Shown here piece by piece: positions 47,811 through 48,336 of a stretch of 64,000 nucleotides of DNA. The position numbers and the translations under genes were made by a program. Under the pieces are notes generated by a model, which worked only from the letters and a program-made list of their open reading frames with translations, was not told where the DNA came from and made no database searches. The DNA is from Octopus vulgaris. Its lineage: Eukaryota. The stretch lies in the NCBI GenBank assembly GCA_951406725.2, contig OX597831.1, forward strand, positions 52,328,001 through 52,392,000, read 5' to 3'. Each line of letters begins with the position of its first letter. Position 1 is the stretch's first letter.

Positions 47811-48336
47811 ATTAATTGTTATCGCCATATTAATATGGCATTCTTATAGATATAAGAATAAACGCTGCCGTTGATTAGCTCCATGAGGCCATCACCTTAA
47901 GATAGCTATTAACAATTAATTTCCAGTAACGCTGCCGTAATCTCTTTTATAGAGACTTAGTAATTTTAATATTTCTATTATTGAAAACAAGTGGATGTAT
48001 TCCACTGAAACTAGGTAGATAGAAACCTTCGAACAGAGACGTCAGTGGCGACACCTGCTAGGTCTGACTACGCTACATTGACAAGGGGCAAATACCCTGA
48101 AACGCGTCTGTAGCTGTCGGACTGGCAGTGTGAAGCGGCTGACCTCCCTTGTTCGAAGGTTATAATGGATACAGATTGTGTATCAATAGCTATCTTAAGG
48201 CGATGGCCTCATGGAGCTAATCAGCGGCAACGTTTATTCTTATATCTATAAGAATGCCATATTAATATGGCGATAACAATTAATTTCCAGTAACGCTGCC
48301 GTAATCTCTTTTATAGAGACTTAGTAATTTTAATAT
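47811..48336 (+). mobile_element. Retrozyme-like element: 364-nt unit, terminal direct repeat, 5' inverted arm
   Basis: Direct repeat 47911-47972 and 48275-48336. Inverted copy 47811-47910 of 48185-48284. Central HHR. (TA)n flanks. Confidence 0.9.
48072..48114 (+). ncRNA. Type I hammerhead ribozyme, U3-A8 core
   Basis: Perfect stem I GCTACA/TGTAGC, TTGACAA, GGGG-caaata-CCCT stem II, GAAAC-GC-GTC (palindrome ACGCGT). Confidence 0.88.

Follow-up and report, generated by a model that had tools for sequence, protein, structure and literature searches.

Non-LTR retrozymes of metazoans, described from coral, mussel (350–390 bp) and axolotl, are small non-coding repeats with less than 50% GC, a type I hammerhead ribozyme and a weak, palindromic helix III (accessible text of PMC7229834 and PMC7761336). 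According to the same part of PMC7229834, their predicted circles are highly paired, their copies occur in tandem with target duplications of more than 4 bp, and Penelope-like elements (PLEs) are present in the same genomes. Their re-entry into genomes has so far been inferred from co-occurrence and pLTR similarity. A review finds no motif in the metazoan repeats that points to a driver (accessible text of PMC7761336), and Li, Clavereau and Pollet (2026; 10.64898/2026.07.22.740005), in the available part of their preprint, conclude from co-occurrence and from pLTR homology in Xenopus that PLEs mobilise animal retrozymes. PLE insertions themselves are recognised by a tail on one end and an inverted 5′ copy (PMC8557442, in part). 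In vitro, a PLE starts reverse transcription (RT) at two internal sites, both target strands are cut and extended, and the tail length equals the distance between the two start sites (PMC11167929, in part).

We analysed a 64,000-nt stretch of Octopus vulgaris DNA, hereafter the window, in which positions 47811–48341 hold one member of a dispersed non-coding family. At a probability of roughly 0.7, we read this copy as a daughter insertion of a protein-free hammerhead family (a non-LTR retrozyme) that carries a PLE footprint and was most likely written by a PLE RT/GIY-YIG endonuclease from a 364-nt, probably circular RNA. The family shares all of the retrozyme features listed above and differs from the metazoan retrozymes in its U3-A8 core and its mostly dispersed copies of less than two units. 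It has two fixed RT start points, a tail and inverted arms, none of which is described in the accessible text of PMC7229834 or PMC7761336. Circular RNA and cleavage have been demonstrated for metazoan retrozymes (PMC7229834, in part) and are predicted from sequence for the octopus family. With EN+ PLEs and Poseidon from Anolis it has in common 5′ truncation, an inverted 5′ copy, a tail on one end, an AT-rich target and two internal RT starts, but its tail is ~61 nt rather than 30–40 and it has no ORF (PMC8557442 and PMC11167929, accessible portions).

Anatomy, fold and ribozyme of the copy

The 364-nt unit is defined by a perfect 63-nt direct repeat, 47910–47972 and 48274–48336, at a spacing of 364 nt (Table 1). 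The first-pass annotation had recognised both the unit and its terminal redundancy, which it put at 62 nt, and the 100-nt inverted 5′ arm that it described is likewise present, with 3 mismatches. The unit has 41% GC, within the retrozyme range of 150–450 bp and less than 50% GC without an ORF. A frame scan found no stop-free frame above 46 codons wholly inside the element, the longest being 46 codons, which agrees with the earlier claim that no ORF is present; the RT plus GIY-YIG ORF of an autonomous PLE is absent from this copy. The right arm matches the unit up to 48336 and then reads ATTAT, the LONG end of the family minus 4 nt. With this end on the right and the SHORT end on the left, the copy is typical of the family.

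Table 1 Features of the retrozyme copy and its flanks (window positions)
Feature	Position	Strand	Evidence
Left (TA)n target tract	47765–47810		Sequence
Inverted arm, unit 276–364 plus 1–11; outer end is the SHORT 3′ end, no tail	47811–47910	−	97/100 complementary to 48185–48284
One full 364-nt unit, no ORF	47910–48273	+	Direct repeat; frame scan; 95–99% identical full-length copies
Internal complete copy of the ~61-nt tail, SHORT (unit ~11) to LONG (unit ~72) start	47921–47981	+	End histogram
Long imperfect stem extending ribozyme stem I	48024–48161	+	MFE; consensus fold with compensatory changes
Type I hammerhead, predicted cut after C48108	48072–48114	+	Descriptor scan; covariation
Second-pass start and tail, LONG 3′ end	48274–48341	+	Sequence, compared with sister copies
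Right (TA)n-rich target tract; target duplication unreadable here	48342–48600		Sequence

Measured from the long start the main arm is 427 nt, and the inverted arm is 100 nt from the short start. The 63-nt redundancy results from writing a 427-nt arm on a 364-nt unit; it is set by where copying stopped and is not the fixed feature it had been taken for, since arms in the family range from ~25 to 2014 nt. The copy comprises 1.17 units with one ribozyme only and lacks the two consecutive ribozyme units by which Li et al. (2026, available part) define an active locus, which makes it less likely to be a source copy and leaves its family membership unaffected. It also carries 4 private substitutions relative to five sister loci. 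On both grounds we regard it as a daughter insertion and an unlikely source, unable itself to release a monomer.

Folded as a circle, the unit reaches −129.7 kcal/mol compared to −80.3 ± 5.5 for 60 dinucleotide shuffles (z −9.0), with 65% of the plus-strand circle paired. The minus strand folds nearly as well (z −8.1), so folding alone cannot pick the strand. The unit is thus highly structured, as the annotation held, and the stems and hairpins it named are found in the sequence and in the MFE fold. Its description as rod-like applies to one long imperfect arm, 48024–48161, which is capped by the ribozyme; the circle as a whole is branched, with 8 hairpin loops, and a long perfect helix is seen only on co-folding the main and inverted arms. 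Both partners have changed in 9 of the 95 base pairs of the whole fold, a level reached by 0 of 500 shuffles and compared to 0–3 in slid controls, these counts being inflated by the relatedness of the units. As read from the aligned units, both the ribozyme and the fold covary across subfamilies.

A descriptor scan detected four type I hammerheads in the whole window. The one within this element lies on the plus strand, and its predicted cut falls at 48108/48109, the site given in the first-pass annotation. Stem I is formed by 48072–77 and 48109–14, the core U3-U-G-A-N7-A8-A spans 48078–84, stem II 48085–98 and the GAAA 48099–102, while stem III has just 2 bp within the palindrome ACGCGT. The core, TTGACAA, has U3 and A8 where C3 and G8 are canonical. 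Rfam returned 0 matches at E ≤ 10 for 47811–48336, probably because of this variant core, and for the whole window only microsatellite-driven miRNA matches among the best 150. The same U3-A8 covariation is reported for the hammerheads of the Schistosoma PLE Cercyon, providing a precedent for the variant core; the Cercyon ribozyme is of the minimal PLE type, whereas the octopus one has a canonical 6-bp stem I and a 4-bp stem II in a retrozyme-sized unit (PMC4209133, accessible text).

Variation was read from an alignment of 24 whole units representing several subfamilies. All four bases occur at core position 7, stem II opens with a G-C pair in 11 units, A-U in 7 and G-U in 6, stem I shows compensatory changes, and the stem III palindrome is kept as ACGCGT or ACATGT. 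In the monomer fold, the pairing probability is 0 for stem III and 0.54 for an off-path helix, so cleavage of the monomer may be slow. Two ribozyme cores are predicted to co-fold through the palindrome, which would fit published accounts of metazoan type I ribozymes that cleave as dimers (PMC4209133 and PMC7229834, in part). For Xenopus retrozymes, the accessible part of 10.64898/2026.07.22.740005 reports that 8 of 9 dimers did not cleave in vitro.

The family and its insertion footprint

A first-look search of the 2.8-Gb genome with the unit gave 2,934 candidates, the best 40 of which were scored. An exact 22-mer of the unit has 918 matches, the long end plus TA 1,129 and the intact ribozyme pattern 1,806, against 0 for each reversed-pattern control, so other genomic copies, presupposed when the locus was called a family, are plentiful. 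Full-length copies are 95–99% identical, lie dispersed on many chromosomes within unique flanks, and cluster into at least 4 subfamilies of 5 or more loci. We mapped 103 loci first and 149 later, recognised duplicates being removed; an unbiased set of 66 loci consists of all 22-mer matches on contig C1 and the first on C2. In the largely open-access literature that we searched on octopus and cephalopod retrozymes, hammerheads and Penelope elements, no description of this 364-nt family was found, in keeping with its first-pass labelling as undescribed; supplementary lists to PMC7229834 and to the 2026 preprint may include cephalopod retrozymes.

Divergence between passes of one insertion, for the 69 loci with at least 200 compared bases, ranges from 0 to 2.3% with a median of 0.83% and is zero in 3 of 69. 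Insertion therefore continued to recent times, and the view of the family as active is supported to that extent. A subfamily with A at core position 7 (L287–L296, contig C1) contains many multimers and shows the lowest within-insertion divergence, 0–0.8%; it is probably the most recently active and probably the best place to look for RNA. Contigs of four sequencing runs presumed to be RNA include 34–106 family contigs each, in several variants, none spanning this locus, and these give neither level, strand nor circularity. For the window itself, 20 of the 24 runs listed contain part of it, none of these being listed as RNA. Parts of the window occur in runs under five organism labels and family variants in runs of two; the family is not confined to one organism label. 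A-to-I editing fixed in the copies was considered and rejected, there being no excess of A>G (37) over T>C (48; p 0.33).

The 3′ ends of 176 arms fall into three groups: 78 LONG (unit 65–77), 77 SHORT (unit 4–16) and 21 elsewhere. Thus 155 of 176 arms end at one of two points ~61 nt apart (histogram peaks at unit 11/13 and 69/72), and the ~61 nt between them constitute a tail that is present on one end only. The 5′ ends are scattered; in the unbiased set the median arm is 197 nt and 20 of 96 arms exceed one unit. Truncation points at the 5′ side cluster at unit 218, 239–241 and 324–325, in or beside stems, which suggests RT stalling or preferred microhomology, and minor 3′ ends occur at unit 341 and 353, in AT-rich hairpin loops.

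Two back-to-back arms with their 3′ ends outward are found at 95 of 149 loci. Among the 76 inverted pairs with two canonical ends, 69 combine LONG with SHORT, 4 are LONG+LONG and 3 SHORT+SHORT; LONG+SHORT thus far exceeds the 50% expectation (p 3e-14; 24/26 in the unbiased subset), with 7 of 76 breaking the rule. A further 23 inverted pairs have a non-canonical end. This strong pairing differs from the in vitro PLE assay, in which no strand difference in start site is reported (PMC11167929, accessible text). At least 5 TA dinucleotides lie within 20 nt at 110 of the 155 canonical ends. Where flanks are not pure TA, target duplications are readable in 19 cases; 14 are 11–13 nt and 17 are 11–16 nt, longer than the >4 bp expected of retrozymes, these lengths including microhomology with the ends and having no chance control. 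The duplications flank the whole two-arm structure. Inverted 5′-truncated copies, variable 5′ truncation, an AT-rich target and a tail on one end are therefore all present, and the PLE integration signature read by the first-pass annotation from one locus is borne out on ~150.

The inverted arm could instead derive from fold-back of the first cDNA or from later DNA rearrangement, with no priming on the second strand. Such an origin would account for short overlaps at arm–arm junctions, which measure 1–4 nt in 34 of 61, and for the sharing of subfamily and rare alleles between arms of one insertion (54 of 250 rare sites, mostly at three loci, compared to 0.1–0.8% between loci). We consider it very improbable, because the target duplications enclose both arms and because the inverted arm may exceed the other in length and bear a tail absent from it, whereas a fold-back copy cannot add sequence beyond the end of its template; the LONG arm is longer than the SHORT arm in only 43 of the 69 LONG+SHORT pairs. 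Separate RNA molecules for the two arms were also considered and are not supported: divergence is 1.82% between arms and 1.83% within an arm, and rare alleles are common to both.

Twin priming by LINEs also yields inversions, and we found no sequence link between the family and a PLE; a SINE-like LINE passenger, a DNA-level satellite or an endogenised viroid-like RNA from outside might thus be envisaged. The pattern of ends already largely refutes these origins, since the PLE footprint of this genome is matched by the two internal fixed ends, the lack of poly(A), the copying beyond one unit and the repetition of the 3′ end in inverted arms. The copies are also dispersed with unique flanks, ARAGORN finds no tRNA gene, and for the ribozyme pattern there are 0 matches in viral and metagenome contigs, a set from which near-genome records may be missing. 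We find the whole group scarcely credible. The family shows every sequence-level feature of non-LTR retrozymes that was tested, and the non-autonomous, structured, hammerhead-bearing element first proposed for the locus is supported.

Template and candidate enzyme

A template of cut linear monomers would make arms stop at unit 200, the ribozyme cut site. Extra stops there are not seen: among 180 passes, 4 end at unit 197–203 compared to 3.8 expected, which indicates read-through. Of 142 passes over the scissile junction, 139 preserve it exactly and 3 carry C>T, which speaks against end-to-end jumping. In 35 cases a rare variant recurs in all passes of its insertion, compared to 292 single-pass variants, presumably later mutations. 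Units stand head to tail in arms of up to 5.5 units; the longest, among the best 40 of 2,934 candidates, are 4.7–5.5 units and themselves start at fixed ends, and 5 of the 66 unbiased loci have two or more ribozymes in one arm. Judged from these copies, such passage through the cut site, over as many as 5.5 units and with no excess of stops, favours a circular template but does not prove one. Back-junction reads, which had been suggested as a check, are not diagnostic, as joining the cut ends restores a sequence that genomic DNA already contains, and the unit wrap is present there too.

Alternatively, a few array loci might be transcribed into linear multimers that the same PLE machinery copies uncut, with a ribozyme that is slow or serves only to trim RNA and with no need of a circle. 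Read-through and exact junctions fit uncut RNA equally well, three long arms (L023, L058 and L246) begin at unit 199–201, and uncut multimers could come from collapsed or unassembled arrays. In addition, uncut RNA is the main substrate of the one PLE assayed in vitro, whose insertion is unaffected by hammerhead mutants (PMC11167929, accessible text). We nevertheless think this unlikely, though not negligible. No large source array appears among the best 40 of the 2,934 candidates, where the longest arms are insertions with fixed ends, and stops at unit 197–203 are not above expectation overall. Variants restricted to one insertion, among them a compensatory pair in L247, recur in all of its passes. 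Finally, linear copying with 5′ truncation should shorten arrays in each generation and lose multimers, which makes a circle the simpler explanation.

Under the circular reading that we prefer, rare loci with at least 2 units would be transcribed, and their ribozymes, which probably dimerise via the palindrome of stem III, would release monomers for a host ligase to close. The PLE enzyme would cut AT-rich DNA, mostly (TA)n, with the ~12-nt stagger that the target duplications imply. Of the two cut strands, one would prime at unit ~72 and its counterpart at unit ~11, where the ends are observed and AU-rich sites could pair with the target. Copying of each arm would then run past the ribozyme site for a random distance, in the observed outcome up to 5.5 times round the unit, and the two arms would be joined, mostly by 1–4 nt of microhomology.

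A possible source of the enzyme is an abundant young AT-rich PLE with 18,784 first-look candidates in this genome (L178–L191, L213–L242; for example G000:C4:127710000-127717000). Its 840-aa ORF has RT motifs, a cysteine linker and a GIY-YIG-like domain, the motifs having been read by eye, and a C3-G8 ribozyme is located 236 nt ahead of the ORF. The unit measures ~6 kb with a long 3′ region, and an Asn-rich linker was also noted. Seven intact ORFs are 0.2–0.8% apart over 1,300 nt, an eighth being out of register in this ungapped comparison. A Pfam search did not recognise the protein, which we class as PLE by its RT and GIY-YIG-like motifs and by its homologues in Octopus bimaculoides and Argonauta hians. 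The element also leaves the same kind of footprint, with a (TA)n target, two ends 82–85 nt apart and LONG+SHORT in 9 of 9 inverted pairs among 30 matches; its long end, TAATATTTATTAT, resembles that of the retrozyme, TAATATTTCTATTAT, both being short AT-rich motifs. However, no same-strand homology between the retrozyme and the pLTR of the young PLE was found in 14 loci and none to older PLE relatives in 30 loci, and the tails differ (61 nt versus 82–85 nt), so this PLE is only a candidate driver. Non-autonomous Chlamys elements such as MRC1 are likewise PLE passengers with multicopy head-to-tail insertions, but these generally resemble their autonomous partner at the 3′ end, a match not found for the octopus family (PMC8557442, accessible text).

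A more specific proposal is that a 364-nt ribozyme circle, not descended from any PLE terminal repeat, captured a PLE enzyme simply by imitating the two AU-rich sites at which it starts, and that an asymmetric enzyme dimer primes both strands of the ~12-nt stagger, one per site, and rolls round the circle. We advance this tentatively, as possible but on balance doubtful. If true, the family would offer a naturally occurring, protein-free minimal substrate from which the requirements of a PLE RT for insertion in trans could be read.

Several loci that appeared to join the retrozyme to a PLE did not hold up. The 224-nt PLE endonuclease fragment at the junction of two retrozyme arms in L116 (1708–1931) looked like a template switch to a driver, but its best match, at 96.4% versus at most 94.2%, is a PLE copy within the same locus at a distance of ~1.3 kb, and it is likely a local templated insertion of this neighbouring DNA during repair. 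L063 and L126 are one nested and one adjacent insertion in AT-rich DNA, and mapping shows no shared junction in L102, L286 and L287. L061, considered as a second family sharing the long end, is single-copy.

To the known retrozymes the family adds a U3-A8 core, a 61-nt tail, strict start-site pairing and an apparent independence from pLTR sequence; its PLE link agrees with the case for PLE mobilisation made by Li et al. (2026, available part) from Xenopus, which stands on other evidence than the insertion footprint used here, where no pLTR homology was found. The copies themselves carry that footprint at scale, and the predicted RT start sites, cut stagger and one-long-one-short rule can be put to the test directly in an in vitro PLE assay that already exists. 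With both a predicted 364-nt RNA and a young, intact PLE, this genome offers a ready pair for studying whether PLE enzymes use circles as templates and by what means they mobilise cargo in trans. The variant core and mostly sub-dimer copies cause such families to be missed by Rfam and by tandem-based screens; the pipeline of Li et al. (2026, as described in the available part), for example, requires two consecutive ribozyme units, which 61 of the 66 unbiased octopus loci lack. Retrozymes are thus probably undercounted.

Other elements in the window

A second, older hammerhead family occurs at 21845–22200 on the plus strand (cut after 22130), with ~161-bp units, a U3-A8 core, inverted arms and 2,018 first-look candidates. 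Its loop 2 is similar to that of the 364-nt family and its stem II covaries, and the two ribozymes are possibly related. The sequence at 21300–21560 is a putative PLE fragment resembling an RT thumb region. At 55839–56750, a broken PLE endonuclease remnant precedes a hammerhead with a C3-G8 core (cut after 56654) and a TA tract. A partial tandem pLTR-like element with ~465-bp spacing and TA flanks lies on the minus strand at 39370–40025 (hammerhead cut after 39607), and L061 contains a related element. Lastly, a near-perfect inverted repeat with ~220-bp arms, fold-back or MITE-like, occupies 54850–55312 and ends at a TA tract.
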